Assembly (NCBI GenBank): GCA_965220245.1
Contig: CBDCPI010000006.1
Coordinates: 201,876-265,875 of the forward strand
Origin: Dehalococcoidia bacterium
GTDB taxonomy: Bacteria; Chloroflexota; Dehalococcoidia; Lucifugimonadales; UBA3495
Direction: 5' to 3'
DNA length: 64,000 nucleotides
Both the position numbers and the translations under genes were made by a program. This document shows positions 13,067-30,211 of this stretch, one piece after another. Below the pieces are notes generated by a model. It was not told the DNA's origin. It saw only the letters and a program-made list of their open reading frames with translations, and did no database searches. Positions within the stretch are counted from its first letter, which is position 1. The number at the start of each line of letters is the position of its first letter.

Positions 13067-14095
13067 TTACTTGAACTCGGGCATCACCTTTTCAGCGATC
13101 AGCCGAACGGAGTTGGCTACCCGGTCACTGGGTATCTGGCCGCCGTAATTCACTTCCATTACCATGCCGGTAATGCCCAGTTTCTCCCGGTACTCTTGGA
13201 TCCGGTCGATGACCTCCTCTGGCGTGCCGTACATGACCCGGTTCTTGAGGATCTCGCTGTAGGGAGCGTTGGCCGCGCTGAGCAGGCGGGTCCTACCCTC
13301 CTCACTGGCGATACTCTTGATTAGCTCCCGGGCGGCGTATTGAATGGCGTGCCTGGTGCTGGCCTCGGGTTCGTCGGAGGCCTTGCTCGATTCCTCGGCC
13401 ACGTAGGCCGGGATACGCAGAGAGACCTCCCCGGGACCGGTGTGTCCAGCCTCGTGCCGGGCGTCCCAGTACAAAGACAGGCGCTCTTGAAGCTGGGGGA
13501 TCGGCGTATTGGCGCTGACAAAGATGTGATGCCCCAATTTCCCGGCCAGAGAGAAGGTGTCTTCGCTGGCAACCGCTATGCGGGTTGGCGGATGCGGTTC
13601 CTGGTAGGGTTTGGGCACCACGGTGACGTCTTGATAGGAGTAGTGCTCCCCTTGGAAGGAGAACTGGTCCTGTTTCCAGGCGGACATAATGACCTCAAGC
13701 GCCTCCAGAAACCGGGGGCGGCTCTCGGTGTAGGGTACGTTGTAGCCTTCATAGTACTTGGTCAGACCGCTGCGCCCGATGCCGAACTCGAACCGGCCCT
13801 TACTAACGTGATCGACGGTGGCCGCTTCCTCGGCAACCCGTAGGGGGTTGGTTAAGGGCAGCACTTGGACCGCCAGTCCAATCCGTATCTTGCTGGTGCG
13901 GGCGGCAATGGCGCTGGAGAGCACCATGGGCGAAGCCAACACCGACCGGTCGGGGCTGAAGTGGTGCTCGGCCAGCCAAATAGAGTCAATACCCAGGTTC
14001 TCCGCCTCGACAACCTGGGAGAACGATTCGTCAAACGCCTCCGGCTGGCTCATGCCTTGGCGGACGTGAAAGTCCGTAAACGTCCCGAAGTCCAT
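13067..14095 (-). CDS. LLM-class (luciferase-like) flavin/F420-dependent oxidoreductase
   Basis: 342 aa. ENLGIDSIWLAEHHF...RIGLAVQVLPLTNPLRVAEEAATVDHVSKGRFEFGIGRSG is a typical LLM N-terminal half. Confidence 0.85.
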   Translation of the reverse strand: MDFGTFTDFHVRQGMSQPEAFDESFSQVVEAENLGIDSIWLAEHHFSPDRSVLASPMVLSSAIAARTSKIRIGLAVQVLPLTNPLRVAEEAATVDHVSKGRFEFGIGRSGLTKYYEGYNVPYTESRPRFLEALEVIMSAWKQDQFSFQGEHYSYQDVTVVPKPYQEPHPPTRIAVASEDTFSLAGKLGHHIFVSANTPIPQLQERLSLYWDARHEAGHTGPGEVSLRIPAYVAEESSKASDEPEASTRHAIQYAARELIKSIASEEGRTRLLSAANAPYSEILKNRVMYGTPEEVIDRIQEYREKLGITGMVMEVNYGGQIPSDRVANSVRLIAEKVMPEFK

Positions 14096-14146
14096 TATCT
14101 TCTCCCCTGATGTATTGTTCCTATAATTCTTGCCGTAAAGCCAATT

Positions 14147-14251
14147 TTCCGCTCACCCTGAGCGGAGCGGAACGAAGTGGAGCTCAGTCGAGGGGTATTC
14201 TCAAGCGTGGACGGTCCTTCGACTGCGCTGCGCTTCGCTCAGGATGAGCGG
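14147..14251. repeat. Hairpin REP-like repeats
   Basis: ttccgctcaccctgagcggagcggaacgaagtggagctcagtcgagggg and ggtccttcgactgcgctgcgcttcgctcaggatgagcgg. Confidence 0.75.
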
Positions 14252-14266
14252 TCTGAAGCTCCGCGC

Positions 14267-15355
14267 TCAGGCCACCGGCGCTTCCTGGAAATGGGGCATA
14301 ACCTGGGTGGCGAAAAGCTCGATGGACCGCATTACTTTCTCATGGGGCAGCCCGGGGAACCCAAAAGCGCCGAAGACGTGATTGATGCCCGCGGCTTGGG
14401 TCTCTTTCAGGCGTTCGATGACCACCTCCGGCGTTCCCCGGAGGGGCGGTAGCCCGGCGTGGCCCGGATCGTCCCGCCGGTCCCGGTCTTGTTGCCGGTT
14501 GGCCCAGTGCTCGTAGCCCGGAGGGATGTTGCCGTTGGCGTCAATCGGCATACCGATGGCCGCGCCGTTGGTGCCCACCGAACGCAGGATGCGAGAGGAG
14601 AAGTCCTCAAGCCCAACGGGGTCGCGCTCGGCCTCTTCCATGGTGGGGGCCACGTATATCGCCTTGGACATGGGCGGGTCCAGATGGGCATGGGGATGCT
14701 TGAACTGGTCCATTTTGTCGCGCCAGCTTTGAATCACTTGAGGCGCTTGGCCCAGGATGTCGGTGGGGCCGCCAGCGATCACCTGTATCCGGCGGCTGGC
14801 AGCAAACTCGATGCTGGCCGGGCTGGTGCTGACGGCTTGGAACAAGGGTGGATAAGGTTGTTGCAGCGGCTTCGGCAGCACCCACAGGTCGTCTACATTG
14901 GTGTACTTCCCATGATAGGTCAGCCGATCCTCGGTCCACGCCTTGATGATCACGTCCACTGCCTCGGTGAACCGCTCCCGGCTCTCGTTGATGTCTACAC
15001 CGACCCCGTCGAACTCTTGGCGTTGATACCCGGCGCCGATGCCAAAGTTGAGGCGTCCTCCGCTAAGCACATCCACCATCGCCGCTTCTTCGGCCACCAA
15101 GACCGGGTTGTGCAAGGGAAGGACCACCACTGCGGTGCCGATGCGGACGTGCTTGGTTCGCGCGGCGACTTGTCCCAAGAAGGACCAGACCCCGGACACC
15201 AGCCCGTGGCGGGAAAACCGGTGCTCGCCGACCCACACCTCGTCTAAACCCAACTGGTCGGCCAATTCGATTTGCTCTAGAGACTCGTTTAGAGATTGCT
15301 CCTGGGTCTTGCTTTCATGCCAAGGCACGATAGTAAATAGACCAAATTTCATCAT
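14267..15355 (-). CDS. LLM-class flavin/F420-dependent oxidoreductase
   Basis: Start at MMKFGLF (ATG at 15355 or 15352). DQLGLDEVWVGEHRF...RIGTAVVVLPLHNPVLVAEEAAMVDVLSGGRLNFGIGAGY. Confidence 0.85.
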   Translation of the reverse strand: MMKFGLFTIVPWHESKTQEQSLNESLEQIELADQLGLDEVWVGEHRFSRHGLVSGVWSFLGQVAARTKHVRIGTAVVVLPLHNPVLVAEEAAMVDVLSGGRLNFGIGAGYQRQEFDGVGVDINESRERFTEAVDVIIKAWTEDRLTYHGKYTNVDDLWVLPKPLQQPYPPLFQAVSTSPASIEFAASRRIQVIAGGPTDILGQAPQVIQSWRDKMDQFKHPHAHLDPPMSKAIYVAPTMEEAERDPVGLEDFSSRILRSVGTNGAAIGMPIDANGNIPPGYEHWANRQQDRDRRDDPGHAGLPPLRGTPEVVIERLKETQAAGINHVFGAFGFPGLPHEKVMRSIELFATQVMPHFQEAPVA

Positions 15356-15525
15356 AGACCCCCGGTATTGGTGGACTTGCCCGGCGTCTGCGCCCAAGCG
15401 TCTAATTCCAATGGAAGGCTGCTAAGCGCCGCCGTGCCTCTCTATACTGCGGGCAGCATACAACAACCGCAATGCCGATTCAAGGCAGAACGGCTGTAGC
15501 CTAGGGCGTTTGGTTCTCCGACAAT

Positions 15526-15552
15526 AAAAAACCCTCTCCCATTGGGAGAGGG
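15526..15552 (-). terminator. Canonical rho-independent terminator, minus strand
   Basis: The minus strand reads CCCTCTCCC-AAT-GGGAGAGGG followed by TTTTTTATTG. It lies 127 nt downstream of the stop of the 15679-16413 gene. Confidence 0.75.
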
Positions 15553-15678
15553 TAGCGCAGTTGGCCGGTTCTGGTGAATATTCGCCGCAACCAGGACCGG
15601 GGGCGTCAGGAATCACTTCCCTTCTTTCAGTTTATTTTTTAGGCGCCAGGTAACAGTCGCCCGGTGAAAGCCGAAGGT

Positions 15679-16413
15679 TCAGCCAGCTCTGACGTATAGA
15701 GCTTGTGGATTGTTATGGCCCTCTCTGTAACCCCCGTCGACAAACATAACCGGGATGGGGGGGTCGTAAAACCCGTCCCAAACTACAAATTGGGTGTCAA
15801 CTTGGCCTAGTAAAACATTCCTTAGGTTTCCTTCGGCCTTGCTGATGTGGACGTAGAAATTTTCGCCACGGCTAGGACATCTGATGAACCCGAAGCCCCT
15901 CTCTTGGTTGTACCGGAATAGCTCTCCGGTGAGCAGGTTCTCCGGCTCACTTACCGCAACTCTGCTCGATGCGACCGCCCGGAGGTTCCGAGTGTTTTCC
16001 TCCAGATCGAAGAATTCGTAGGAGAGGTCGCTCTCGATGCGAATGCCAGTCACTTTAATATCTTTGTCTTGGTATTGTTTGCCAAAAGTAAGGGCTCCCA
16101 AGGCGAAATAGGCAACCGTTGCTGCCCCATCCAGGTCAGCTTGGGGGGATATTTCGATGAACACGCTCTTGGGTACTACCTTCCCTTGCTGATGGATTCT
16201 CAAGAATTCGCTCTGCTTCCTAACATCATCGTCCTTCAGTGTAACCTGAATGCCGATGGGGTTGGTGAAGAAGGTATCCCTGAATCTGGTGATGGTAAAG
16301 TCAATCTTATAACTGTGATCGAAATTTGGATCATATGCAATGTCGCACCATGTTCCAAGCCTTGTCCGGAGCCGCTCTTCAAAGTCCTTTCCGCTTATTC
16401 GTCTTGTAGCCAC
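15679..16413 (-). CDS. Fusion protein: N-terminal restriction-endonuclease-like (Mrr/PD-QxK-like, tentative) domain + cold-shock domain + C-terminal extension
   Basis: 244 aa. The cold-shock domain is clear: GELFRYNQERGFGFIRCPSRGENFYVHISKA. The N-terminal 150 aa carry GKDFEERL..., DHSYKIDFTI and NPIGIQVTLKDDD, reminiscent of the Mrr-type catalytic core D...(I/V)D...Q-x-K. The gene is visibly AT-richer than its neighbours. Confidence 0.6.
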   Translation of the reverse strand: MATRRISGKDFEERLRTRLGTWCDIAYDPNFDHSYKIDFTITRFRDTFFTNPIGIQVTLKDDDVRKQSEFLRIHQQGKVVPKSVFIEISPQADLDGAATVAYFALGALTFGKQYQDKDIKVTGIRIESDLSYEFFDLEENTRNLRAVASSRVAVSEPENLLTGELFRYNQERGFGFIRCPSRGENFYVHISKAEGNLRNVLLGQVDTQFVVWDGFYDPPIPVMFVDGGYREGHNNPQALYVRAG

Positions 16414-16664
16414 AGACTCTCTCCTTTCCAGTCTGAAAGAGAAGAAACCCCTGTAGAATCCCCCTTCCTATATGATTGTTAAAGTGCCGGCCACTGCGCC
16501 GAGCCCTATTCTAGCAACTATGAGCCTTATGTCAATTGGGATGATTGCACACTCAGCAGGGCCTTTGATGTACCTGTATTAGCGGTCCCCGTCAAAGGAA
16601 ATGTAGCTTAGCGCTCTCAATAGAGAGGTAATTGTAACGAGACAGGAGGCTAGGAAGTAATGCA

Positions 16665-17015
16665 GTGGCCTTCATCGTAGCTGATTCGGGAGAACTCGGG
16701 ACGGCCACCCTTTTTATCCTTCTGACCTTTGTAGCAGCAGTTTGCCCCTTCGGGTTACTCCTCTCTATAATCGCGGTGTTTTGGGCCGTTGTTTTTACTT
16801 GGATTGGCATCGGCTGGCTTCGCAGTCACGGCAAGAATTGGCGAAAGGGTCTGCGGCTGGCCGTTAAAGTCGTCGGCATAATCGCGCTCTTGGGAGCACT
16901 GGCCTACGGGATAGTTTCCGCCGTAGCCGCCTTTCATCCGCCGGGGAGTAAGCCCGACTTGCCGAGCCCCCAGTTTACCCATCTCTGGCCATCCGGTCTG
17001 TCCGAATCCGTGTGA
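16665..17015 (+). CDS. Small integral membrane protein, about 3 TM helices, unknown function
   Basis: 116-aa ORF with hydrophobic stretches TLFILLTFVAAVCPFGLLLSIIAVFWAVVFTWIGIGW and VVGIIALLGALAYGIVSAVAAF. GTG start with a weak RBS context. Confidence 0.4.
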   Translation: MAFIVADSGELGTATLFILLTFVAAVCPFGLLLSIIAVFWAVVFTWIGIGWLRSHGKNWRKGLRLAVKVVGIIALLGALAYGIVSAVAAFHPPGSKPDLPSPQFTHLWPSGLSESV

Positions 17016-17068
17016 GGCCCAAGGTCTTTTAATGCTCGGTGAAAACCGGAAGCCGCCCTCCGGCAGAT

Positions 17069-17176
17069 GTCATTCTGAGCCGCTTTGCGGCGAAGAATCT
17101 AAAATCCTTGGCGGTTAAACCGTTCTCCCGGCAAGGATTTTAGACCCCTCGCTCCGCTCGGGGTGACAGGGGTGAC
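17069..17176. repeat. Hairpin REP/MITE-like repeat, gtcattctgagc...gaagaatctaaaa / ggattttagacc...ggggtgac
   Basis: Inverted arms gtcattctgagccgctttgcggcgaagaatctaaaatcc and ggattttagacccctcgctccgctcggggtgac. Confidence 0.8.
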
Positions 17177-17225
17177 ATCGGGGTGGCAATTGAAATACCC
17201 CTGAAATACCCCGGTATGAGGCCAA

Positions 17226-18626
17226 CTAGATGGGCGGTCTTCGGCGGCGCCACTCATTGGCTTGTTCGTAGGCGTAAGCCACGTTCAGGACGGTTTGCTC
17301 GGCAAAGGGCCTGCCGCCAATCTGGAGCCCGATGGGAAGGTCCTCGGCGGTGAAGCCGCAGCAAATGCTGGCCGAGGGGATGCTGCCCAAGGCGAATGCG
17401 GTGGTCAGCAAGTAGGGAATGCGGTTGGCTTTGTCCTTGGCATTGATCACCGGGTCGGGCACTACTGGTTGGGCAGCCACCCCGGCGGTGGGGACCGCCA
17501 GCACGTCAACCTTTTGCAGAGCGTCCAGTATTTCCTGCCGGAGCAGGGAGCGGAGCTTCTGGGCTTTATAGTAAGCGTTGCCGGGAATAAGACTTCCCGT
17601 CAAGAAGCCGATGCGGTTGTCGTGATTTATTTCCTGCAAGTGGTTAAGTAGCAGATTCCGGTAGTTGGTGGGCGCTTCGACCCGGAGCCCCGCAGAAATG
17701 GTCCCGGCGTGGGCGGTCAAGGGGATCGACAGTTCCTCTACGGAAGCGCCCAACTCACTCAGCCCGTTTACGGCAAGAGAAACTGCGTCCCGGACTTCCG
17801 AAGTCACTTCCTCGGAGTACAGCATCTCTTGGACTACACCCACTCGTAGCCCTCGAATGTTGTCGGTCAAACCCTGGCGATAGTCGGGCACCGGCAGGTC
17901 GGCGGTGTAAGGGTCCTTGGGGTCGCGGCCGGCAATGGCTTGCAGGGTAATCGCGCAGTCCTCGACCGTGCGAGAGATGGGGCCGATTTGGTCCATCGAC
18001 CAAACTCCCGGCATTACTCCGTAGCGGCTGACCCGGCCCCAAGTGGGCCGCAGGCCCATCAGGCCGCACCAGGTTGCCGGAAACCGGACGGAACCGCCGG
18101 TATCCTCGCCCAGGGACGTAGCGCACAGAAAAGCGGCGGTGGCCGCCCCGGAGCCGCTGCTGGAGCCGCCGGTATAGCGGTCCAGGTTCCAAGGGTTGCG
18201 GGCGGTCTCGTAGCCGTGAGAAAGGCCGGTGGTGGCGAACTCGGTCATGTTCAGCTTGCCCAGCAGCACCGCCCCGGCGGACTTCAGGTTGGCGATTACG
18301 GTGGCGTCTTCGGTGGGGACGACATCGTTGAATATGGGACTGCCTCCGGTGGTGCGGATGCCAGCGGTGTATACTTGGTCTTTCACCGCCACCGGCACGC
18401 CGTGCATCGCGCCCAAGTCTTCACCGCGCGCCAAGGCTTGGTCCGCGGCCTGGGCGGCTTGCAGCGCCTCTTCCCGGGCCACGGTCAGGTAGGCATACAG
18501 CTTGCTGTTGAGGTTGTCGATTCGCTCCAAGTAGGCTTCCACCGCCTCCACTGAGGATACTTCCCGTTGCTTAATGGCTTCGGATAACTGGGAGGCGGAT
18601 AGGAAAGGAATGTCGGCTTTGTCCAT
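17226..18626 (-). CDS. Amidase-signature family amidase (GatA-like)
   Basis: 466 aa. The amidase signature GGSSSGSGAATAA is present, with the conserved context KDQVYTAG...TGGS. Confidence 0.88.
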   Translation of the reverse strand: MDKADIPFLSASQLSEAIKQREVSSVEAVEAYLERIDNLNSKLYAYLTVAREEALQAAQAADQALARGEDLGAMHGVPVAVKDQVYTAGIRTTGGSPIFNDVVPTEDATVIANLKSAGAVLLGKLNMTEFATTGLSHGYETARNPWNLDRYTGGSSSGSGAATAAFLCATSLGEDTGGSVRFPATWCGLMGLRPTWGRVSRYGVMPGVWSMDQIGPISRTVEDCAITLQAIAGRDPKDPYTADLPVPDYRQGLTDNIRGLRVGVVQEMLYSEEVTSEVRDAVSLAVNGLSELGASVEELSIPLTAHAGTISAGLRVEAPTNYRNLLLNHLQEINHDNRIGFLTGSLIPGNAYYKAQKLRSLLRQEILDALQKVDVLAVPTAGVAAQPVVPDPVINAKDKANRIPYLLTTAFALGSIPSASICCGFTAEDLPIGLQIGGRPFAEQTVLNVAYAYEQANEWRRRRPPI

Positions 18627-18843
18627 GACGGCGCCTTTCTCCTAAGATTAGAATAAGGGTGGTCTAATGGGGGCGAATTACCAATTGGAGCGCTTTGTTC
18701 GATGGCCCCGGCCTTACTCGGTCGTCTTTGTTAGACAGGGACTGGAGTTGTCCGGTAACAGCATCATAGGCGTGGTTGGGGTCACGGTCAACCCGGGCTA
18801 GACAGCCGATCAGGGTCTTTCGGTCTTGTTCTAAAGCTGATTT

Positions 18844-18973
18844 CTCCGCTCATCCTGAGCGTAGCGCAGCGGAGTCGAAGGATTTTCCCGGCTGCGGACG
18901 GCCCTTCACTGCGCTCCACTCCGCTGCGCTACATTCCGCTTCTCCTGAGCTTGTCGAAGGGCAGGATGAGCGG
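18844..18973. repeat. Hairpin REP-like repeat cluster
   Basis: ctccgctcatcctgagcgtagcgcagcggagtcgaagg, ccttcactgcgctccactccgctgcgct and cttctcctgagcttgtcgaagggcaggatgagcgg. Confidence 0.8.
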
Positions 18974-19044
18974 GGGAGTTGGTGCTAGGCGGAGAACTGA
19001 AAGGCCCTAGCGGCCGATACTGAGTTGGGAGAGGTGTAGGATAT

Positions 19045-20427
19045 ATGGCTGGCGCCACTCTAAAAATCGAGGGCGCCCGGTTCATCTTGACGGTGGACCA
19101 AGGGCGAAGGATTATTCAGGACGGGTCCGTCCTGATTGAAGGACAGAGGATTGCCAAGGTTGGTAAGTCCTCGGAATTGGCGGGCGTTGCCGCGGACCGG
19201 GTAATCGACGCCAGCGAGATGGTGATTACGCCGGGCTTCTGCAACGGCCACATGCACATCAGCTACGCCCATGCCACCAGAGGGATATTCCCCGATAACT
19301 TGGCCCCCGGGGACTACCTGGCCAACGTTTTCACTCTTCAGGCGGCCATGACCGAAGAGGAGGAATACCTAACTTCACTATTGGGCATCACGGAGCTACT
19401 CAAGTACGGCACTACCTGTTTTCTGGACCCGGGTAGCACCAAGTTTTTGGACGCTTGCTTGGCGGCTTACCGGGAGTCGGGCTGCCGCATCGTAACCGGC
19501 AAGCAGGTGGTAGACCGGCCCAACCCCTTGAACCTGCCGGTATACTCCTTGGCCGACGCCGTCTCCCAAATGGAGGAGACGGTCCAGTCTTACGACGGCA
19601 AGCTTGACGGTCGAGTCCGCGCTTGGGCCATGCCCTTCGCCGCCGACTACTGCACGCCGGAGCTGCTGACGGCCGCCAAGGAAATTGCGGACCGGAACCA
19701 TACCGGCCTGACTCTACACCAAGGAAACGCCCCCGCCGCCGTGAACGCCTTCCTTAGCCGCTACGGCAAGCGCCCGGTGGAATATCTGGAGGACATCGGC
19801 GTGTTGGGGCCGAACGTGTTGTTGGCCCACGTAATCGGGTTGGATGAAGCCGAGGTCGATTGCTTGGCCCGCACCGGCGCCAAGGCGGTGATGTGCCCCA
19901 CCGCAGCGTTGAAGATGGGCCAGGGCATTACTTCCCAGGGACTGCTGCCGGAGATGCTGGAAAAGGGGGTTTGCGTCGGGCTGGGCACCGACGCCGGCAA
20001 CAATTCCAGCTTAATCGAGACCATGCGTTCCATGTACCTGATTACGGTGCTTTTCAAAGACGCCCGGCAGACCACGGACGTTATCCCTGCGGAGACGGCC
20101 TTGGAGATGGCGACCATTCAAGGCGCAACGGCTCTCGGCTTGGGTGATGACATCGGTTCCATCGAAGAGGGCAAGAAGGCCGATCTGGTGCTCTTCGACA
20201 CCAAGCGGCCTGAGTGGCGCACCATATTTAACCCGGTAAATAATTTGGTGTACAACGCCGACGGACGTAGCGTCCACACCGTAATCGTGGATGGCAGGGT
20301 GGTAGTGGAAGACCATACTCCGGTGTTTGTGGACGAGTGGGAGCTTATCCAGAAGGTACAAAAGCTGGGCCAGGACATGCTGCAACGCACCGGAATATCC
20401 TTTCCGCAGCGTTGGCCGGTGATTTAA
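19045..20427 (+). CDS. Amidohydrolase-superfamily deaminase/chlorohydrolase-like enzyme (COG0402-type)
   Basis: 460 aa. HxH metal motif in ITPGFCNGHMHISYAH, then LLAHVIGL and GLGTDAGN. The overall layout resembles MTA/SAH or guanine deaminase-like proteins. Confidence 0.75.
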   Translation: MAGATLKIEGARFILTVDQGRRIIQDGSVLIEGQRIAKVGKSSELAGVAADRVIDASEMVITPGFCNGHMHISYAHATRGIFPDNLAPGDYLANVFTLQAAMTEEEEYLTSLLGITELLKYGTTCFLDPGSTKFLDACLAAYRESGCRIVTGKQVVDRPNPLNLPVYSLADAVSQMEETVQSYDGKLDGRVRAWAMPFAADYCTPELLTAAKEIADRNHTGLTLHQGNAPAAVNAFLSRYGKRPVEYLEDIGVLGPNVLLAHVIGLDEAEVDCLARTGAKAVMCPTAALKMGQGITSQGLLPEMLEKGVCVGLGTDAGNNSSLIETMRSMYLITVLFKDARQTTDVIPAETALEMATIQGATALGLGDDIGSIEEGKKADLVLFDTKRPEWRTIFNPVNNLVYNADGRSVHTVIVDGRVVVEDHTPVFVDEWELIQKVQKLGQDMLQRTGISFPQRWPVI

Positions 20428-20456
20428 GCACCGGTACTTTAATCAAAGGAGCCCCC

Positions 20457-21170
20457 ATGAGCCAGCTAGTTTTCATTCACGGCCCGGGAGCAGGCGCTTG
20501 CGCCGAGGGCTTCACCCACCAGCTAACCCGCTTCCCCGGCAGCTTGGCGCCCAACCTGCCCGGCCACTTATCCGGCGCCCCATGCCCCGATGTTGCGCGG
20601 TATACCGAGTGGCTTAGGGGATGGCTGTGGGCCAACGGGGCGGACCGGGACTTGGTGTTGTGCGGGTTCACCCTTGGGGCTTGCATCGCCTTGCAATACG
20701 CGCTGGACTACCCCGAGGAGGTCAAAGGGCTGGTGCTGATGACCGTAGCTATGAAACCCAAGGAACGGGCCCCGGGAAGCCTGGAGATGCGGCTAAAGGC
20801 CGCCCAGGACCCAAGTAGCTTTGACCAGTGGCTGGACGCCATGCGCCACGCCATGATGTTCATTGACGAGGAGCTGCGGGAACGCTTGGTTGAGCGCCAC
20901 CGGAAGGTGGGGCCTACCTCTCAGTACAACGACTTGCTGGTTATCGACCGCTTCGACGTCCGGGACCGCATTGGCTCCCTCAAGCCGCCACTGCTGCTAA
21001 TCCGGGGAGTGGATGATCCTCTGGAGCCGCCGGAATACGAACTGGAGATACATCAGGCCGTGGCCGGGTCCAAGTACTTGAAGTTTTCCCAAGCGGGCCA
21101 CTTTCCCATGGCGGAAAAGCCGGTGGAGGTCAACCAGGCCATTGCGGACTTCCTGAAAACGTTGACCTAA
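20457..21170 (+). CDS. Alpha/beta-fold hydrolase family protein
   Basis: The ATG at 20457 follows AAGGAG. LVFIHGPGAG... is present. The nucleophile-elbow position reads GFTLG, with Thr where Ser is usual. The C-terminus has GHFPMAEKP. Confidence 0.7.
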   Translation: MSQLVFIHGPGAGACAEGFTHQLTRFPGSLAPNLPGHLSGAPCPDVARYTEWLRGWLWANGADRDLVLCGFTLGACIALQYALDYPEEVKGLVLMTVAMKPKERAPGSLEMRLKAAQDPSSFDQWLDAMRHAMMFIDEELRERLVERHRKVGPTSQYNDLLVIDRFDVRDRIGSLKPPLLLIRGVDDPLEPPEYELEIHQAVAGSKYLKFSQAGHFPMAEKPVEVNQAIADFLKTLT

Positions 21171-21224
21171 GCCCGCCCGTACCGGGATTACCTTTATCAG
21201 GTATCAGGCGTTAGGGAGTTGGCA

Positions 21225-21425
21225 ATGACAACGGCAACCGAATCCGACGATACCCGGATGGGGCGGCTGGAAGGGCAAATGAACCACGTGGTTCTAGTCC
21301 TTCAGGAACTCCGCCAGGAACTCCGGGCGGTCAACGCCAGGGTAGACCGGCTGTTTCTGGCAACGTGGGCTATCGGCGGCGGCATCATCGCCGCCTTGGT
21401 GGTCCAGATAGTCCGGGCCGGGTAA
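21225..21425 (+). CDS. Small tail-anchored coiled-coil protein (XhlA-like architecture)
   Basis: 66 aa from the ATG at 21225. N-terminal coiled coil RMGRLEGQMNHVVLVLQELRQELRAVNARVDRL and C-terminal TM segment FLATWAIGGGIIAALVVQIV. Confidence 0.45.
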   Translation: MTTATESDDTRMGRLEGQMNHVVLVLQELRQELRAVNARVDRLFLATWAIGGGIIAALVVQIVRAG

Positions 21426-21770
21426 TCCGGCGCCGATTCATCAACTGCCGGGAGAGTGAAGCAATGACAATTGCAACCGCCAGCCACACCGCAATCGCGC
21501 CGAAGGGCGCGGGGCTTCGTCCCTTCCCTCTAGCCCGGAGTTCGTCGCGGCGTATCTGGCGCGGCGGGCGTAAGCCGAGGCGAGGGCCACCACGTTGAAG
21601 CTGGACCGGCCGCTATCGCCGATGCCCACTGGCGGGCCGGGCTGGACGACGTGACACATGAAGGAACCAAGCGGGTGCTGGCCGGTCTGGTGTGGGCCGA
21701 CGAGCGGCCCCAAGAACAGGTCGCACCGCACACATCCGAAGCCTTAGCCGCAATCAGGGCCACACCTGAA

Positions 21771-23024
21771 TTAATCCAGGCCCATAAGCTCCGCCCAGCG
21801 TTGGTAAAAGCGCCGGTGGTTGCTCTCGCTCATCCTGAAATCGCTGGCCCAGCCGCCCAGGTCCTCGTGGAAGCCTTCGTGGCCCAAGCCCATTTGCATG
21901 TTCAGCGGGTAGCGGCGGGAGACCACTCCCCGGGCGGTCTCGGTGCATCCCTGCCAGTTGTCCATGTCATCCTGCTCGTAGGTTCCCGAAGCGGAAAAGC
22001 TGCGTAAACTGGCCAATCGCATTGCATCCTTCACCTCGGCGGGCGCCGAGCGGTCGACGTAAGCCCATACCCAGATCTCAGTCTTGTCGACGCCCTTGGG
22101 ATGCCAGACTCGTAGGGTGTGGGCGGGCGCCCGGTTAAAGGAGAAGTTCGGGAAGGCCGTGCCGAATAGGGGCTGGACCCGGCTCAGGCGGGGACCAAGC
22201 CGCCGGTGCATCTCTGGTAAGACCCGTTCCTCATAGGCTGAAATCTCCGGTATCGGCGGCGCGGTCTTATCATTGGGACCCACGGTTACTATGCCATGGC
22301 CGTTTCCGGGAGAGACTATCCTCCCTGTCCAGTTCTGCCGGTTGGCGGCGGTGGCCCCGTACCCGGTAGTGATAGCCGACAAGTGGCTCCAAGGGGCGTG
22401 GTACAAGTCCCCGGCGAAGTTCTCCGAAGGAAACTTCCAGTTGCAAGGGACCACCCACTTGTGGGGCCGCCCTATAACCTCAATCCCGCCCTCGCACCGG
22501 TCCACGAATACATCGAGGTACCAAGCCATCTCTCCCAAGTATTCCGGGAGAGGGGGCGCCGCCGGATCGAAGGTAGCAAAGACCAGCCCCTTATAGCTGT
22601 CCAGTTGGGCTACCGGGCTGAGCCCCCAGTTGTCGGTGTCCAACTCGTTATAGTAGGCGTCTTGGAGATTTGGAACGGCTTGCAACTTACCTTCGTTGGT
22701 GTAAGTCCAGCCGTGATAGGCGCAGATAAAGGCGCTGGCGTTCCCTACGTCGGCCCGGCACAACCGGTTTCCCCGGTGCCGGCACACGTTGAGGAAGGCT
22801 TTCACCTCGCCCTGCGTGTCCCGCACCACCAATACAGGGTCTTCCCCCATGTAGGTAGTCATAAAGTCGCCGGGGTTTGGAATCTGGCTTTCGTGGCCCA
22901 GGAAAAGCCAACACCTGGCAAAGATACGCTCCAACTCTCGCTGATAAATTGATTCCTCGACGAATATTCGCCGGCTTACCAGGCCATGCTCAGCATCGAC
23001 CAGTGGCGTTTTCGGAGTAGACAA
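21771..23024 (-). CDS. Rieske [2Fe-2S] ring-hydroxylating oxygenase, alpha subunit
   Basis: 417 aa. Rieske motif CRHRGNRLC...CAYHGW is present, and the catalytic domain has DLYHAPWSH. No adjacent beta subunit or ferredoxin gene. Confidence 0.88.
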
Positions 23025-23300: not shown

Positions 23301-24299
23301 TTACAAGTTAATCGGGTGCTCCACGTATTCCTTTACTTTGTCGTAGATTTGGAGGCGGTGCCTGGAGGACTCCAGCACGAAGATCCGGTCTTGGTCGTCA
23401 ATGTTAACCGCCACCGGCCGATGGAAGCGCCATTCCGGCTCCATATCCGCCCGGCGCCGGGCTTTGATGATGTCCGGATTGGCGTCGATGTAAGTCTGCG
23501 TCCATGGGGAAGGAGTCTGGGCATCGCCAACCAAGGTGGTGACGAACTTGCCGTTGGGACCGTAAATCTGAAGCCGGTGGTTGCCCCAGTCGGTCACGTA
23601 GACGTCGCCCTCGGAGTCCACCGCCACCCCGGAGGGGCCGTTGAGGCTCCCTACCCCGGAATCCGACCCCTCGAACTTGAGGAGCAGGTCACCCTCGGGG
23701 CTGAACTGTTGCACCCGGTTGTTCCTCCAATCGGCGACATAGACTTGGTCGGCGGCGTCGATGCAGACGCCCCACGGCATATCCAGTTGGCCGTCGCCGG
23801 AACCTTGCTCTCCCCATTGGCCCAGGTACTTCCCCTCTTTCGAGAATTTCTGCACCCGGTTGTTGAGACTGTCTACCACGAACACATCGTCATTGGAGTC
23901 AAAGGCGATCCCCGAAGGCCCGTTCAACTCCCCGTCACCGCTGCCGGCCGTACCCCAACCGGACAAAAATCGGCCTTCGCTGTTGAAGACGGATACCCGG
24001 TTCAAGTATTCGTCCGTGGCGTAGATGTTTTCGTCTTGGTCTAGGTCTATGGAGCGCGGCCAAATAAACTGGCCGTCGCCCGATCCATTGGCGCCGAACT
24101 GGCCCAAAAACTCATGGTCCAAGCTCACGGTAGAAATACGCTGGCCCAACTCCTCAGCGCCGCGGCTCAAAACGTAGAAGCGGCCGTTGGAACCCAAGGC
24201 GAAGTCCTGGGGAGACCAGAACCCCTGCCCGGCCATCGCGTACATCCCGATGCAATGGCTGTAATCGAACACTCGCCCGGCGGCGACGGTGGTCAGCAT
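23301..24299 (-). CDS. NHL-repeat beta-propeller protein
   Basis: 332 aa with six repeats of the type GSGDGQ(F/L)xxPxG(I/V)xxD...(I/V)YVxDxxNxRVQxF. Confidence 0.85.
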   Translation of the reverse strand: MLTTVAAGRVFDYSHCIGMYAMAGQGFWSPQDFALGSNGRFYVLSRGAEELGQRISTVSLDHEFLGQFGANGSGDGQFIWPRSIDLDQDENIYATDEYLNRVSVFNSEGRFLSGWGTAGSGDGELNGPSGIAFDSNDDVFVVDSLNNRVQKFSKEGKYLGQWGEQGSGDGQLDMPWGVCIDAADQVYVADWRNNRVQQFSPEGDLLLKFEGSDSGVGSLNGPSGVAVDSEGDVYVTDWGNHRLQIYGPNGKFVTTLVGDAQTPSPWTQTYIDANPDIIKARRRADMEPEWRFHRPVAVNIDDQDRIFVLESSRHRLQIYDKVKEYVEHPINL

Positions 24300-24363
24300 C
24301 GCGGTCCTCCTGAGCGGCTTACTGCGGGACTGATGTTAATCAAGGTTTTACTTGACTAAGTGT

Positions 24364-25497
24364 CTAAACAAAGTCCAGTTCTTCGAACTTGCCGCCGACA
24401 ATGGGCACCGGGTCCAAGCCCAGCCACTTGTCGACCACGGTGGAGTAGAAGCCCCGGAAGTCGTAGTTGGGCTCCAAGTCGCCTTGGGTCAGGTCTTCGG
24501 GCTTGACTGAAGGATAGTGGCTGTACATGCCGCCCTTGACGCCGTTGCCGATGACGAAGGCAACGCCGCCGGCCCCGTGGTCGGTGCCGGTGCCGTTGTC
24601 GCGCACCCGGCGGCCGAACTCGGTGAACAGCATCATGATCAGGTTGTCGCCAGCATCGTGCTCCTTAAGATCGTCGAAGAAATCGCTGATGGCGGCGGAG
24701 GTGTCGATCCAGAGCTTCTGGTGCATCGGCGGCTGGTTGAAGTGGGTGTCGAAACTGCCGTGGGCAGTGTAGAAAATCTGCGTCCCCAAATCGGCAAGGT
24801 ACACTCGGGCCACGTCTCTTAGGGCCTTGGCGATGGGTGTCTCCGCGTACTCGATAGACGACGAGTACTTTTCGGGGGCGCTCTTGATGATGTCGGCGCC
24901 TTTCAGCGCGTCTCGCCCGGTCTGGCCCAGATAGTCCATGGTGGCGCCGGTGCCGATGGCCGGGGCATACATGCGGGCGAACCGTTCCAGAATCTTAGTC
25001 CGGTCTTGCTCGGCGATTCCGGGCACCCCCGACATTACGCCGTAGGACTCCAGGTTAGACACCGAGGTGATGGGCACTCCTCGCAGCGCTAGGGCCCGCG
25101 GCAGACCTTGGCCGAAGTTGACCCCTTTCAGCACGTTCTCTCCATTGGGGTCCAAATCCCGGATTACCTTGGCGACCCAACCCTCGGTGCCCACCTTGTC
25201 GGGCTCGCAAGTGTGCCAAATGTCCATGGAGCGGAAGTGGGAGCGGGGCGAGTTCTCATAACCTATGCCGTGAACGATGGCAAGTTTGCCTTCGTCGTAG
25301 AGCTTCTTCACCGGACCCATGTTGGGGTTGAAGGCCAACTCGCCGTCGATGGGGATCACTTGGTCTTCCGGAATACCCACCCTGGGCCGGGCGTCCCGGT
25401 AGTAGGGATTGGTGTAAGGGATTATCGTGTTCAGGTAATCGTTGGCCCCGGTTAGCTGCAAGATAACCAGCACCGGGTCCTTCTTGGTGGTTGCCAT
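24364..25497 (-). CDS. DUF1501 domain protein (sulfatase-like fold)
   Basis: The ATG at 25497 lies 7 nt after AGGAGG. DPVLVILQLTGANDYLNTIIPY...IVHGIGYENSPRSHFRSMDIWHT...FDTHFNQ...FTEFGRRVRDNGTGTDHG. It is a paralogue of 63081-64000. Confidence 0.85.
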   Translation of the reverse strand: MATTKKDPVLVILQLTGANDYLNTIIPYTNPYYRDARPRVGIPEDQVIPIDGELAFNPNMGPVKKLYDEGKLAIVHGIGYENSPRSHFRSMDIWHTCEPDKVGTEGWVAKVIRDLDPNGENVLKGVNFGQGLPRALALRGVPITSVSNLESYGVMSGVPGIAEQDRTKILERFARMYAPAIGTGATMDYLGQTGRDALKGADIIKSAPEKYSSSIEYAETPIAKALRDVARVYLADLGTQIFYTAHGSFDTHFNQPPMHQKLWIDTSAAISDFFDDLKEHDAGDNLIMMLFTEFGRRVRDNGTGTDHGAGGVAFVIGNGVKGGMYSHYPSVKPEDLTQGDLEPNYDFRGFYSTVVDKWLGLDPVPIVGGKFEELDFV

Positions 25498-25574
25498 AGC
25501 CATTCCTCCTGTTGTCGTCGGCTTGCCGGCGCGCGGGTTAAGCGAGTGTCTGCAAAGTTCCCTCTCCCTCTGGG

Positions 25575-26906
25575 CTGACAAGGGTAGGCATTTGATTGTT
25601 TCAGGTTTCTGCATGGTAGATGAGCTTCATATCGGGCGACGGTTCCGGCCACGGTTCAGGAAGCAGCCAGACCCTGCGCCAAAGTCTGCCCTTGGGCAGC
25701 AGCCGTCTCAGCCAGATGATGCCCTGCCGCAGTACACTGATAGTCCGTTTGGGAGCGCTCCAAGCGCTGCGGTGAGTGGACGCCAGAGCCTTCGGCGGTG
25801 CTCTGAGATGGCCGGGCGCTATGCCAAGCTCATTGGCGTCTTCTACCCTGGTCCCATACGCCAGCGTCCAGAACGTCGCCACCGACAACGCAAGCCAGTG
25901 CCTCGCCACCCGTTCGGGATCGGTCCTGCGAGTGTTCTGCCACTGCCACCCCAAGCTCTTGAGTGCTCTGAAGCCCAGTTCTATCCAGAACCGGAGCATG
26001 TACCAGCACACCCCTGCTTCGCCGGGCGGCAGGTCGGTCATCACCACCCACGGCTCGTCTTGGCCCTGGTCCCAGACCACAATCACCGTCCCGCGGCGGC
26101 GCTTGCTGCTGTCCCTGAAAGCCGTCCCGGACCCAACATATGCGTGCCCCGGCCCCGGCACCAACGCTCGCGCCGGCAGGCGGGTTCCTCCGTCAGGGCA
26201 GAACACGGTGTTGACCGATTGCCGCATGTAAGGATGCCACCCCACAGAGCGTATCTGCTCCCACAGCCGCGGACTCCTCAAACCGCGGTCAGTCATCACC
26301 AGCACGCTCATGTCCGGCGGCACCGCTTCGGACAGCAACTTCAGCAGACTCACCGCCGGCGCTATCCACTGCCCGGGTTTGTTGGCGGGCAGGATGTGCC
26401 AGGCCACCGGAATAGCGCAACTGCGATAGACCACGCTTATCGCAATGGCGTTTATCCGGTCGCCCTTCATCGTCGGGTCTATGGCAAGCACCAATCTGTC
26501 AGACTTCCACCAATTGAGAATCCATCGCAGCAGTGGAACGAAGCACAGTCTGACATCCAACTGCACTCCGCACGGGTTGGCGCGGTCCTGCCCATTGTAC
26601 AGCCCTCCCGGAGATACTGCCGTATGCTGTTGAAGTTGCCTATGAACGAAAGCTCAGCGGCGACCGCGTTCTGGCAGCCGCTCTGGGCCATTATGATGCC
26701 GTACACCCACAGGACCAGTCCCTTCAACTGAGACCCTCTGAGATGCGGCATGTAGTATTGTATGGTCTGCTTCATCTGGTAGTATTCGGTTGGGAAGCGC
26801 ATGGCGAACCTCTGGCAGCCTTTCTGATTCTCACCAAAAAGATGCCAGAAAGCTGTGCGCTTTCCAAGTTCTTATGCCTATTTCATACTTTGCCTACCCT
26901 TGTCAG
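25575..26906 (-). mobile_element. Complete IS4-family insertion sequence (1332 bp) with an 11-bp target-site duplication
   Basis: Perfect 16-bp terminal inverted repeats: CTGACAAGGGTAGGCA at 25575-25590 and TGCCTACCCTTGTCAG at 26891-26906. They are flanked by direct repeats CTCCCTCTGGG at 25564-25574 and 26907-26917. Confidence 0.9.
25601..26802 (-). pseudogene. IS4-family DDE transposase split by a frameshift into two ORFs (26802-26479 and 26566-25601)
   Basis: The N-terminal ORF ends ...NSIRQYLREG. The second frame continues LYNGQDRANPCGVQLDVRLCF.... DDE blocks LAIDPT and LVMTDRG are present, plus the IS4 Y-(2)-R-(3)-E-(6)-K signature in YMLRFWIELGFRALK. The frame change lies near the G-rich run gggagggc around 26600. 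Confidence 0.8.
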
Positions 26907-27026
26907 CTCCCTCTGGGAGAGGGTTAGGGTGAGGGCTATTCTAGCGGTGAACTACCTTGGCCGTCGCCAGGCATTTCCCCTCATCCCAACCTTCTCCCCA
27001 AGGAGAAAGGGCTTTTGAAACACCTT

Positions 27027-28430
27027 CTATGCGAATTGATAGTCCCTGGATGCGGCGATTAGGGCCAGCATGACGCCGATCCTAGCCTCAGACTCGTTAA
27101 TATCCTCTTTGGAGTCCCAACTGAGGTCTCCGCTCTCTTGGGCTTGGGCCAGCAGTTCGGCGTGGGTCGACTCGCTGACCTCCAGCGGGCCCACCGCGTC
27201 GAGACAAGCGGCCACCAACTCGGCGGGCGAGAGGTCCCCTTGGGACCTCAGGTGCTCGACCACGGAGCGGATGCCGGGTAGCGAGGTGTTGCCCAACAGG
27301 CCGGAAGCGAAATTCACTCTTCGCACCAAGGCTCCGCCATCTATCCATTCCGACCCGGTATGCCAGCTCTCTACGCTGGGCGGATTGAGCAACTCCTGCC
27401 CCTGATAGGCGCACTCGAAGGCCAAGGAGTTGAAACCGGGCCTGGGGCCGTTGAAGTTGCCCACTAGGCGAACGGTCCCCACCACCAACTCAGCCGGGCT
27501 CTTGACCCGGGCAAAGCGGGCATTTTTGAAGAAGTCCGAGTTGAACAGCACGCGGAGCATCGAGCGGATGTCGTAGTTGGACTCGTGGTAAACGTCCACC
27601 AAGGTCTGGATGGCCTCGGGGTCTTGGGGCGGGGTGATATTCCAGCTAGGCACTTGAGGTTCATCGGCTACAAAGAAATTGTACAGGTGCCGGGCCAAGA
27701 ACCGGGGAGAGGCCGGTTGGCTTGCGATGATGTCGATAACGTCGCTGCCGTTGAACCGGCCAGTCTGCCCCAAGAAAGTCTTCTCGCCGTCGTCGTGGTC
27801 CTCGGGCTTGTATTCGAACTTCCAGTAGAAGCGGCCCAGCGGGTTCCGGGGAATCTTGGGGGCGACGGTCCATCCGGTAAAGGCCCGGGAAGCTTCTTTG
27901 ATGTCCTCTTCGGAGTAGTTGCCCACGCCCAAAGAGAAAAGCTCCATGAGCTCCCGGCCCCAGTTTTCGTTGATCGCCCCGTTGTGATTGCCGTTGTTGT
28001 CCAGCCAGTAGATCATGGCCGGCGATTTGGCCAACTCCACCAACAGGTCTCGGAAGCTCCCCAACCCGTATTTGCGGAGCATGGCGATCTGTTGGGTAAG
28101 CTCCGGGGGATTGTCTACTTTGGAGTTGCCGGTGGCAAACAACTGGTGCCAGAAGAGCGCCATTTTTTCTTCTAAAGGCCGCTTGGTGTTGATCATCCGG
28201 TACACCCAGTCGGCCTGGTTTATGGGAGGGCCCAAGGCGCCTTCGTAGCCCGGGAAAACCCGGTACAGGAGGGCCTCGTCAATTGGTGGTTGCTCTTCAG
28301 GGTGTAGAAGCTCCTCCACGGTAGCTTCATAGCCCTTGGCGACCCGAGCTTCCAGTTCTTCCCGGGGAGCCCCAAAACCGGCCCGCCGCATCAGGTGGGC
28401 CATCAAGGCAATATCATCTCCGTGAGGCAT
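27027..28430 (-). CDS. DUF1800 domain protein
   Basis: 467 aa. LMAHLMRRAGFG...EKMALFWHQLFATG...NENWGRELMELFSLGVGNYSEEDIKEASRAFTGW. It is a paralogue of 61607-63007 and the usual partner of DUF1501. Confidence 0.85.
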   Translation of the reverse strand: MPHGDDIALMAHLMRRAGFGAPREELEARVAKGYEATVEELLHPEEQPPIDEALLYRVFPGYEGALGPPINQADWVYRMINTKRPLEEKMALFWHQLFATGNSKVDNPPELTQQIAMLRKYGLGSFRDLLVELAKSPAMIYWLDNNGNHNGAINENWGRELMELFSLGVGNYSEEDIKEASRAFTGWTVAPKIPRNPLGRFYWKFEYKPEDHDDGEKTFLGQTGRFNGSDVIDIIASQPASPRFLARHLYNFFVADEPQVPSWNITPPQDPEAIQTLVDVYHESNYDIRSMLRVLFNSDFFKNARFARVKSPAELVVGTVRLVGNFNGPRPGFNSLAFECAYQGQELLNPPSVESWHTGSEWIDGGALVRRVNFASGLLGNTSLPGIRSVVEHLRSQGDLSPAELVAACLDAVGPLEVSESTHAELLAQAQESGDLSWDSKEDINESEARIGVMLALIAASRDYQFA

Positions 28431-29697: not shown

Positions 29698-30167
29698 TTA
29701 TATGGCCTGCTTGACGACCCTGACTGATGCCCCTTGTTTGTCCGACTCTATTATTTCAACGCCATCTGGTATGAAATGGGCGTAGGTTCTAACGTAATAC
29801 TCCGCCAGGGTTTCTTTTCGCTTTTCGTTATAATCCCGCAAAACAAAAGGATTTTCCGGTATTCATCTGGTGCCAAGTAAAACAAGAACATCGCTTCGTT
29901 CCAGGCATGCATTTTTCCTGTAGGGGTATTGCCGTTTCTCATCCAAGTATGGCATTTGCATTCCACCAACACCCGCATTCGCTCTGAACCCAAATCAAAC
30001 TGGTGTTTCTTCTTCTCCCTAAGCCCTATTTTGAGTTCAAACGACCTTGTGAGTTCCAATCTCTCAAGTCGCCTGAAATATTGTTGGGCAGTTATTTCAA
30101 ATTCTTTGCCCACGACCGGGTTTTCTTTCCCGTCGGTATTCTTGAAGATGTCATTTGAAATGGCCAT
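29698..30167 (-). pseudogene. PD-(D/E)xK nuclease-like small protein, interrupted by a frameshift
   Basis: ATG at 30167 after AAGGAGG. Core FDLGSERMRVLVECKCHTW has the D...E-x-K pattern. After ...DEYRKILLF the track frame degenerates. Shifting one base within the T-run cttttgtttt gives LRDYNEKRKETLAEYYVRTYAHFIPDGVEIIESDKQGASVRVVKQAI, ending at 29698. The segment is AT-rich. Confidence 0.55.
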
Positions 30168-30211
30168 CGTCAATCCCTCCTTTTCGCTCGGGATACGGCG
30201 GCCTTCCTACC

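Follow-up and report, generated by a model that had tools for sequence, protein, structure and literature searches.

The stretch analysed here, referred to as the window, comprises 64,000 nucleotides (nt), or 64 kb, of contig CBDCPI010000006.1 from a Dehalococcoidia bacterium, and its subject is a minus-strand gene that encodes a protein of 244 amino acids (aa), whose exact sequence is already on record in the protein collection. The original prediction had read this gene, from the letters alone, as a nuclease-like domain fused to a cold-shock domain, placed on a horizontally acquired, AT-rich islet and acting as a single-gene defence or abortive-infection effector; the open reading frame (ORF), with the peptide stretches quoted from it, is indeed present at 15679-16413 on the minus strand. 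A promoter-like site and an untranslated leader precede the gene, an intrinsic terminator follows it and a divergent ORF stands at its back (Table 1). The account that we somewhat favour is that of a conserved chromosomal protein of Dehalococcoidia in which an Hjc-like domain is joined to a cold-shock domain, which belongs to an undescribed and widely scattered bacterial family, is expressed from a self-contained, single-gene transcription unit, and has a housekeeping role. This role is most likely the processing or binding of nucleic acids and not phage defence.

Table 1. Positions of the features of the locus in the window, and of the Swt1-like HEPN gene in four related loci.
Feature	Position	Strand	Details
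Coding sequence, 244-aa two-domain protein	15679..16413	-	GTG start, TGA stop, GGAGAG Shine-Dalgarno
N-terminal domain, residues 1 to ~155, predicted Hjc/Mrr-type restriction-endonuclease fold	15949..16413	-	AlphaFold, hhalign
C-terminal domain, residues ~160-243, predicted cold-shock domain	15682..15936	-	RNP1-like GFGFI, RNP2-like FYVHI, inserted helix, extended strand 4-5 hairpin
Sigma-70-like promoter (putative)	16508..16535	-	TTGACA, 16-nt spacer, TG-extended TAGAAT; 11/12 matches
5' untranslated leader, ~88 nt	16414..16501	-	Predicted hairpin at ~16410-16456
Intrinsic terminator	15553..15531 (whole feature 15520..15553)	-	ACCCTCTCCC-AAT-GGGAGAGGGT followed by T6; GC-rich 10-bp stem, 3-nt loop
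Divergent 116-aa ORF	16665..17015	+	Two long hydrophobic stretches by hydropathy, which would fit 2-3 transmembrane helices
Swt1-like HEPN gene, locus L002	11256-12584		
Swt1-like HEPN gene, locus L007	11253-12587		
Swt1-like HEPN gene, locus L009	11342-12712		
Swt1-like HEPN gene, locus L006	11274-12574		Split in two

The structure of the protein was modelled by AlphaFold with a 91-sequence alignment (mean predicted local distance difference test, pLDDT, 93.5; predicted template modelling score, pTM, 0.73); with only 20 close homologues the pLDDT of the N-terminal domain was below 50 and the model was unusable. The C-terminal part is modelled as a five-stranded antiparallel barrel of the oligonucleotide/oligosaccharide-binding (OB) fold (strands 160-169, 174-179, 184-189, 215-229 and 236-243; pLDDT 76-97 per 10-residue block), carrying an inserted helix (195-201) and a long hairpin of strands 4 and 5. 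The top 36 Foldseek matches in the PDB are all cold-shock domains (E down to 3.5e-5), and the alignments place 83-87 columns on whole cold-shock proteins (Csp) of 67-71 aa, with template modelling (TM) scores, normalised to the target, of 0.73-0.78. In sequence-profile searches CspC (PDB 8h1i) is matched at E=6e-4, and the Pfam model PF00313 covers residues 163-202 with its positions 3-43 of 66 at E=8e-5, the score of 22.9 bits being under the cut-off of 27, and 38 of the 91 family members match it at E<=0.01. The two ribonucleoprotein (RNP) motifs are recognisable, RNP1 as ERGFGFI at 171-177 (GFGFI, 173-177) and RNP2 as NFYVHIS at 185-191 (FYVHI, 186-190), where the family consensus is GxGFI and FFHI. 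The cold-shock domain of the original prediction is thereby borne out, and the C-terminal part is predicted to be a genuine but divergent representative that remains under the Pfam gathering threshold. A separate beta-rich tail of ~50 aa had been described as well; since the Foldseek alignment spans entire Csp proteins, this tail is rather the second half of the same domain, i.e. strands 4 and 5 beyond the inserted helix. In comparison to the bacterial cold-shock proteins CspA/CspC/CspE (PF00313), the five-stranded OB barrel and the RNP1-like and RNP2-like motifs are shared, whereas the inserted helix, the elongated hairpin and the sub-threshold score set the domain apart. Moreover, the cold-shock domain of this family is never free-standing and is always found C-terminal to the endonuclease-fold domain.

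Residues 1-155 have no match in Pfam, NCBIfam, PADLOC or PHROGs, in keeping with the earlier remark that no described system was recognised. When 58 N-terminal domains of the family were compared to Pfam at E<=10, no recurrent family emerged and none of the domains matched PF01870 or PF04471; a profile of the close homologues found nothing meaningful in the PDB. In the AlphaFold model (pLDDT >90) the domain consists of a helix (8-19), three strands (23-26, 39-44 and 53-58), a second helix (64-74) and a further strand (82-88), which is the order of elements of the restriction-endonuclease fold, and about 60 extra residues follow the core (helices 94-115, strands 121-135, helix 137-154). The Foldseek matches to this part (PaqCI, YaeQ, AF2093, Rpb5, MmcB-like, 'Endonuclease like' and PD-(D/E)XK entries) all have an endonuclease fold; they are weak (E ~1e-2) because the search with the whole model was dominated by the cold-shock domain. 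A profile of 58 N-terminal domains matched Hjc of Pyrococcus furiosus (Pfu; PDB 1gef) at a non-significant E=1, in the same register as that found by hhalign. The latter gave a probability of 82.7% with a single Hjc sequence (identical to 1gef_A) and of 82.6% with a 25-sequence profile of the Hjc family (score 37.2, P 1e-5). As controls, the reversed Hjc profile scored 14.4, 60 column-shuffled profiles scored 11.9 +/- 2.8 (maximum 20.7) and 60 block-shuffled profiles 14.9 +/- 2.8 (maximum 22.6), i.e. the real score lies about 8 standard deviations (sd) above the shuffled controls. We conclude that the N-terminal domain has, as far as the model can be followed, the Hjc/Mrr-type restriction-endonuclease fold known from archaea, and the profile comparisons indicate a probable remote relationship to Hjc and not membership in its family.

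In the common register G8, E12, K36 and D38 of our protein fall on G5, E9, K31 and D33 of Pfu Hjc, and G54, Q56, T58 and F70 fall on E46, K48, T50 and F68. The protein thus resembles archaeal Hjc (PF01870; 1gef) in motif I (G-x3-E), in motif II (K-x-D-h-h) and in the Phe on the second helix, all in register. It differs from it in motif III, where E-V-K becomes G-V-Q, in the missing Pfam match, in the ~60 residues past the core, in the fused cold-shock domain and in the bacterial host, and its nuclease activity is only putative. The motif scheme described for the Hjc/Mrr group is G-x-E...G(F/Y), hDhh and hhh(E/D/Q)hK, which in Pfu Hjc takes the form E-VD-EVK (PMC8805305). Here, motif I is G8-x3-E12 and motif II is K36-x-D38, with D38 directly before strand 39-44 where the Asp of the PD motif is found (core strand 2); the second core helix carries both K66, at its start, and F70. 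The earlier suggestion of a Mrr-type PD-(D/E/Q)xK core holds as regards the fold and the three stretches GKDFEERL, DHSYKIDFTI and NPIGIQVTLKDDD, which correspond to motifs I, II and III, and fails as regards a canonical (D/E/Q)xK. Core strand 3 reads I-G54-V-Q56-V-T58, which is GxQ in the hhalign register and QxT in an alternative one; the alternative places Q56 at the acid position and T58 at the position of the Hjc Lys, so that only the lysine would be lost. In terms of the Hjc catalytic tetrad E-D-E-K, the first two residues are kept as E12 and D38, and the last two are replaced. Mrr_cat (PF04471) gave no profile match, and the Lys of hhh(E/D/Q)hK is absent; K60 of 'TLK' is not conserved across the wider family.

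The residues of this site are nevertheless strongly conserved. Among the 91 sequences, which share 20-48% identity, G8, E12, D32, K36, D38, G54, Q56, T58, K66 and F70 are each conserved in at least 90%, E12 reaching 92%, D38 ~99% (90/91) and F70 99%. In a few divergent members 4-6 of these residues are changed at once, as would be expected if they formed one functional site. E87 was also considered as a migrated catalytic acid and was down-weighted, being 87% conserved, with K, Q, V or L in its place in some 12 members. A catalytic Lys that has migrated to the second core helix is found in Pa4535, giving the pattern PD-EXX-K (PMC3424549), and K66 sits at the corresponding place; Pa4535 (1y0k), however, keeps the Glu of motif III where the present family has Gly or Gln, and the two are likened by motif only. 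We lean slightly towards a structure-specific nuclease that depends on metal and whose active site is rearranged; failing this, the domain would be a nuclease-derived binding module. We suggest that the cold-shock domain, by means of the RNP1/RNP2 aromatic residues, grips single-stranded RNA or DNA, and that this grip would place the Hjc-like module on an adjoining duplex, branched or structured segment, to bind or to cut it. Dimerisation of the Hjc-like module is probable, given that F70, which hardly varies in the family, aligns with the invariant F68 of Hjc. The role of the protein could be in RNA processing, or on repair and recombination intermediates that carry single strands, and the unit would be expressed from its own promoter with a leader that can pair with the Shine-Dalgarno sequence.

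It is useful to compare this architecture to other proteins that combine the same kinds of modules. NucS joins an OB fold to a PD-(D/E)xK domain and acts on DNA. SfsA (PF03749) is another nucleic-acid enzyme in which an OB fold and a PD-(D/E)xK domain are combined (PMC3424549). Both SfsA and NucS/EndoMS are, like our protein, small stand-alone proteins in which a barrel that binds nucleic acids, as single strands or non-specifically, is joined to a domain of restriction-endonuclease fold. In contrast to them, the domain order is reversed here (the barrel is C-terminal), the barrel is itself a proper cold-shock domain, the motif of the active site is different, and neither family is matched by sequence profile. 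One might go further and suppose that in bacteria the protein stands in for a resolvase of Holliday junctions or forks, i.e. that it is an enzyme resembling an Hjc orthologue and recruited by single-stranded DNA via the cold-shock domain. We regard this as very improbable: the Hjc-defining catalytic Glu and Lys are missing, there is no match to PF01870 and cold-shock domains more often bind RNA, even though Hjc is the best-matching characterised family (motifs I, II and the Phe at Hjc F68 being aligned), a RecQ gene lies within the same conserved block in one of the related loci described below (L006), and the combination of OB fold and PD-(D/E)xK domain acts on DNA in SfsA (PMC3424549). The closest precedent from defence is CoCoNuT type IV restriction, where CnuC/McrC carries a cold-shock-type OB fold and a PD-(D/E)xK domain, sometimes inactivated, in one protein, and where RNA targeting was proposed (PMC11090510). 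CoCoNuTs, on the other hand, take the form of McrBC-type operons of several genes, in which an McrB GTPase, DUF2357, coiled coils and zinc ribbons occur, and none of the components that define CoCoNuT/McrBC systems was found in the 244-aa protein or its neighbours.

A word-indexed search returned 19 homologues of 62-75% identity, and an exhaustive search with the N-terminal domain profile returned 91 cluster representatives at E<=1e-3, nearly all of them 230-310 aa long; the family as a whole comprises ~120 sequence clusters. A hidden Markov model (HMM) built from the family itself finds the cold-shock domain in 109 of the 112 full-length members, and the fusion is therefore essentially obligatory. 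So far, members come from uncultivated Dehalococcoidia, from Actinomycetota and Entotheonellia and from lineages of soil metagenomes. In the literature we found no paper describing a fusion of an Hjc-like and a cold-shock domain. We classify the proteins as a new family of the PD-(D/E)xK superfamily in which motif III is rewired and the cold-shock domain is obligatory. If our reading is true, the ~120 clusters are a new protein family with a new architecture, i.e. two well-known modules in an arrangement for which no database has a model, and the change of ExK to GxQ with a Lys on the next helix is a natural test of the plasticity of PD-(D/E)xK active sites. The practical importance of this is moderate, as the organisms are uncultivated; both modules are familiar and the genomic context is ordinary.

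The genomic context was compared in the ten GTDB species genomes found to carry the gene, all of them metagenome-assembled genomes (MAGs) of Dehalococcoidia. Each of the ten has one copy. In 9 of the 10 related loci moaB/mogA (MoCF_biosynth) lies directly downstream on the same strand, and beyond it follow a conserved gene for a 115-aa protein (F1), an NHL-repeat protein, DUF1501 and DUF1800; synteny between the gene and the NHL/DUF1501/DUF1800 block holds in 8 of the 10 (L002-L010, 12700-17500). The adjacency to moaB is lost in the window and in its closest relative, L001. In the window the block lies ~7 kb away at 23301-28430, inverted relative to the gene, and the 64 kb contain neither moaB nor the 115-aa gene; the shift of the block and the loss of moaB indicate a local rearrangement in the lineage of the window. 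Taken pair by pair, the identity of the protein is correlated with that of MoaB (rho 0.44) and with that of the 115-aa protein (rho 0.43), and the mean identities are 0.78 for the protein, 0.82 for MoaB and 0.85 for the 115-aa protein. The ratio of nonsynonymous to synonymous substitution rates (dN/dS) is 0.04-0.10 in the N-terminal domain and 0.09-0.19 in the cold-shock domain, which places both domains under strong purifying selection.

Housekeeping neighbours are also found around distant relatives, in four contexts: homoserine dehydrogenase with a PilZ response regulator; rhodanese with EF-G; RNase E/G, a glycosyltransferase and CofH; and OEP with HtrA. In a clade from soil metagenomes with 46-50% identical N-terminal domains, the gene lies upstream of a peptide ABC transporter in 16 loci (L024, L026, L027, L037, L038, L040-L043, L045-L047, L054, L057, L061 and L067), with the genes of two BPD_transp_1 permeases and of an SBP_bac_5 binding protein next on the same strand, at gaps of 2-127 nt as obtained by crude ORF calling; no functional link between gene and transporter is evident in this clade. 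Pooling the neighbours of 45 loci gave 129 non-redundant proteins of diverse metabolic Pfam families, none of which occurs more than 3 times. To judge from these comparisons the gene behaves as a conserved, vertically inherited chromosomal gene of Dehalococcoidia. The horizontally acquired islet of the original prediction is not supported by a gene that is single-copy in 10 genomes, syntenic with moaB in 9 of 10 loci, diverging in step with its neighbours and of low GC content in other genomes as well. The homologues lie in conserved housekeeping contexts, an outcome that the original prediction had itself named as one that would refute it.

The presumed function as a single-gene anti-phage or abortive-infection effector, in which phage nucleic acid would be sensed through the cold-shock domain and either it or that of the host destroyed by the nuclease, was followed up in several collections. 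No relatives were found by tblastn in 50,697 phage records and 72,556 plasmids, nor by a pattern scan of 2.9 million viral contigs, and no integrase, transposase or tRNA was seen to flank the gene. The sole match of the protein to a PADLOC model is to CSD_V, a generic cold-shock model (E=0.019), with no match to a defence model, and PHROGs gave only a weak cold-shock match. Genuine defence matches among the 129 pooled neighbours come from one locus only, L006; PADLOC matches to 'mad3/mad8' beside the L008 orthologue were rejected as generic similarity to ABC-transporter ATPases. Directly upstream of the L006 orthologue (L095, 1-9568) lies an Hma-type defence cluster consisting of a DUF499 ATPase, a DUF1156 methyltransferase (HmaB-like, E=7e-59), an SNF2 helicase (HmaA/DrmD-like) and a fused nucleotidyltransferase-HEPN protein. 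In addition, 4 of the 10 loci have a Swt1-like HEPN gene (PF18731 in the N-terminal domain, E=4.9e-7; 442-456 aa) between moaB and the 115-aa gene (Table 1), which appears to be disrupted in L006 and is possibly a variable insertion of defence type. This HEPN gene is absent from L097, the family protein of which is identical to that of L002; the defence-like genes are thus variable, and the gene and moaB are constant.

We consider the defence reading improbable. It can draw on the pairing of a nuclease fold with a cold-shock domain in CoCoNuT systems (PMC11090510), on the deviating GC content of a gene with its own promoter and terminator, on the varying upstream flank, on the Hma-type system and HEPN-MNT gene directly upstream in L006 and the HEPN gene found two positions downstream in 4 of 10 loci, and on the rarity of the family and its scattering across phyla. 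Against it stand the lack of a PADLOC defence model and of relatives in the phage, plasmid and viral-contig collections searched, neighbours that are overwhelmingly metabolic or housekeeping, a gene that is found once per related genome in conserved synteny with moaB and stays where the defence-like genes vary, and strong purifying selection together with a rate of divergence equal to that of housekeeping neighbours. A low GC content shared by the orthologues also speaks against it. Those who scan genomes may take a caution from this: a gene that combines a nuclease fold with a nucleic-acid sensor, has low GC and ends in a terminator of its own looks like a defence gene, and it is the comparative context that shows a vertically inherited core gene instead.

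As to base composition, the GC content of the 244-aa gene is 0.501, which is z=-3.1 and rank 2/54 among the window's 54 ORFs (mean 0.600, sd 0.032), and its GC content at third codon positions (GC3) is 0.576 as opposed to 0.719 for the window. The 735-bp segment of lowest GC in the entire 64 kb falls inside this gene, and the intergenic region that bears the promoter (16414-16664) has a GC content of 0.474. The AT-richness noted in the original prediction is therefore real for this gene, with windowed GC now computed, and does not extend to the 116-aa ORF that had been included with it: with a GC content of 0.570, ~1 sd under the mean, this ORF is no outlier, and the 'islet' reduces to one gene with its control regions. 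The orthologues in L001, L002, L006, L009 and L010 are likewise 5-10 points lower in GC than their loci, and the family genes of distant relatives in other phyla have 0.50-0.53 in hosts of 0.54-0.62; the copies of L003-L005, unlike that of the window, have a high GC3 of 0.87-0.88. Low GC appears to be a recurrent property of the gene family and no mark of recent acquisition in this genome; being common to the orthologues, it gives no evidence of such an event here.

There are several points that weigh against the account of a conserved housekeeping protein with a rearranged nuclease site. The Foldseek matches of the N-terminal domain, obtained with the whole model as query, are individually weak, and the Hjc match falls short of 95%. 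The canonical Glu and Lys of motif III are gone family-wide. In one subclade of Dehalococcoidia (P0003, P0004, P0005 and P0018; the L003-L005 lineage), Gly or Asn takes the place of D38 in proteins that are otherwise intact and still under purifying selection (omega 0.089), which argues that canonical catalysis may be dispensable at least there. On the side of genomic context, the upstream flank of the gene varies among relatives and holds a defence island in one genome, no conserved functional partner points to one pathway, and a GC3 well under the genome mean would also be expected of a foreign gene.

The active-site points bear on a further explanation, which we hold to be possible if doubtful, namely that the protein is a non-catalytic chaperone or regulator in which an inactivated nuclease fold is kept for dimerisation and for the binding of duplexes or junctions. 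It might then, with comparable doubt, resemble a dimeric Csp in its action and serve as an RNA chaperone, as an antiterminator or as a nucleoid-associated factor, perhaps with translation controlled by the leader. The change of ExK to GxQ in ~97% of the members, the loss of D38 in a subclade under purifying selection and the unreliability of E87, with its 87% conservation, as a migrated acid all agree with this, as do the retained RNP motifs of the cold-shock domain; inactivated PD-(D/E)xK domains kept for binding are a known theme (PMC11090510; PMC3424549), and a strong promoter, a long leader and a hairpin pairing with the Shine-Dalgarno sequence recall the organisation of csp genes. However, the acidic pair E12 (92%) and D38 (~99%) is conserved across phyla, which is hard to explain by binding alone, the polar constellation behaves as one site, there are precedents for sites that are rearranged and yet active, and the leader fold is no more stable than shuffled sequences. 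As a separate observation on the L003-L005 proteins, P0003, P0004, P0005 and P0019 have a low-complexity C-terminal extension of 30-55 aa past residue ~236, rich in Pro, Gln, Tyr and Ser and ending in GNY or GNF; in P0003, P0004 and P0005 it stands beside D38G or D38N, and P0019 is truncated at the N-terminus so that D38 cannot be scored.

A bolder version of the rearranged-nuclease account, which we think rather unlikely, would make the family a new class of bacterial nuclease in which an Hjc-type fold with a rewired site (E-D-Q and a helix-borne Lys) is directed by the cold-shock domain to single-stranded RNA or DNA. Such a protein would be a new enzyme that processes RNA or forks in uncultivated Chloroflexota and in bacteria of the soil, or else a compact single-protein sensor-effector at the edge of defence hot spots.

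Turning to the expression signals, the promoter-like site lies ~95 nt 5' of the gene start, and both hexamers are kept in the closest orthologue L001, where the -10 element is TATAAT; the 140 nt 5' of the gene are 85% identical between the window and L001. In the predicted fold of the leader the Shine-Dalgarno GGAGAG is paired with CUUCUCUU, the 5' arm of a hairpin, and the stability of the fold is not above that of shuffled sequences (z=-0.29). Between the window and L001 the hairpin is conserved and its stem has one compensatory change, from A-U to G-C, the inner stem changing from UUUCA/UGGAA to UUCCG/CGGAA; an upstream alignment of 11 sequences was too divergent for covariation analysis. 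The conservation and the compensatory change are only a hint that translation might be controlled by a leader pairing with the Shine-Dalgarno sequence. A motif ACYTTAAC, situated ~75 nt 5' of the start codon, recurs in several loci. The terminator lies 125 nt past the stop codon, and when the 64 kb were scanned on both strands nothing else qualified as a clean canonical terminator, in agreement with the earlier statement that it is the only textbook example in the window. An Rfam scan of 15300-17300 gave only a chance match to a microRNA (miRNA).

The divergent 116-aa ORF is annotated as a gene in the source record and has a 41-aa fragment as its sole cluster mate; Pfam, NCBIfam, PADLOC and PHROGs contain no family that matches it. 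We rejected it as a partner gene, for it has no counterpart in any of the 10 related loci, and we likewise rejected a toxin-antitoxin reading, for there is no conserved small partner gene. The wider surroundings in the window (13067-15397 and 17226-23024), and also in L001 and L097, contain many luciferase-like monooxygenases together with amidase, amidohydrolase, Rieske ring-hydroxylating oxygenase and alpha/beta hydrolases, which we take to be typical of SAR202-type Dehalococcoidia of the sea or of sponges. Finally, a 140-aa ORF on the minus strand (29751-30173), which has no Pfam match and whose exact sequence is absent from the protein collection, has the lowest GC content of the window (0.435; GC3 0.54), and its surroundings (29.3-30.5 kb) form the second AT-rich patch of the window.

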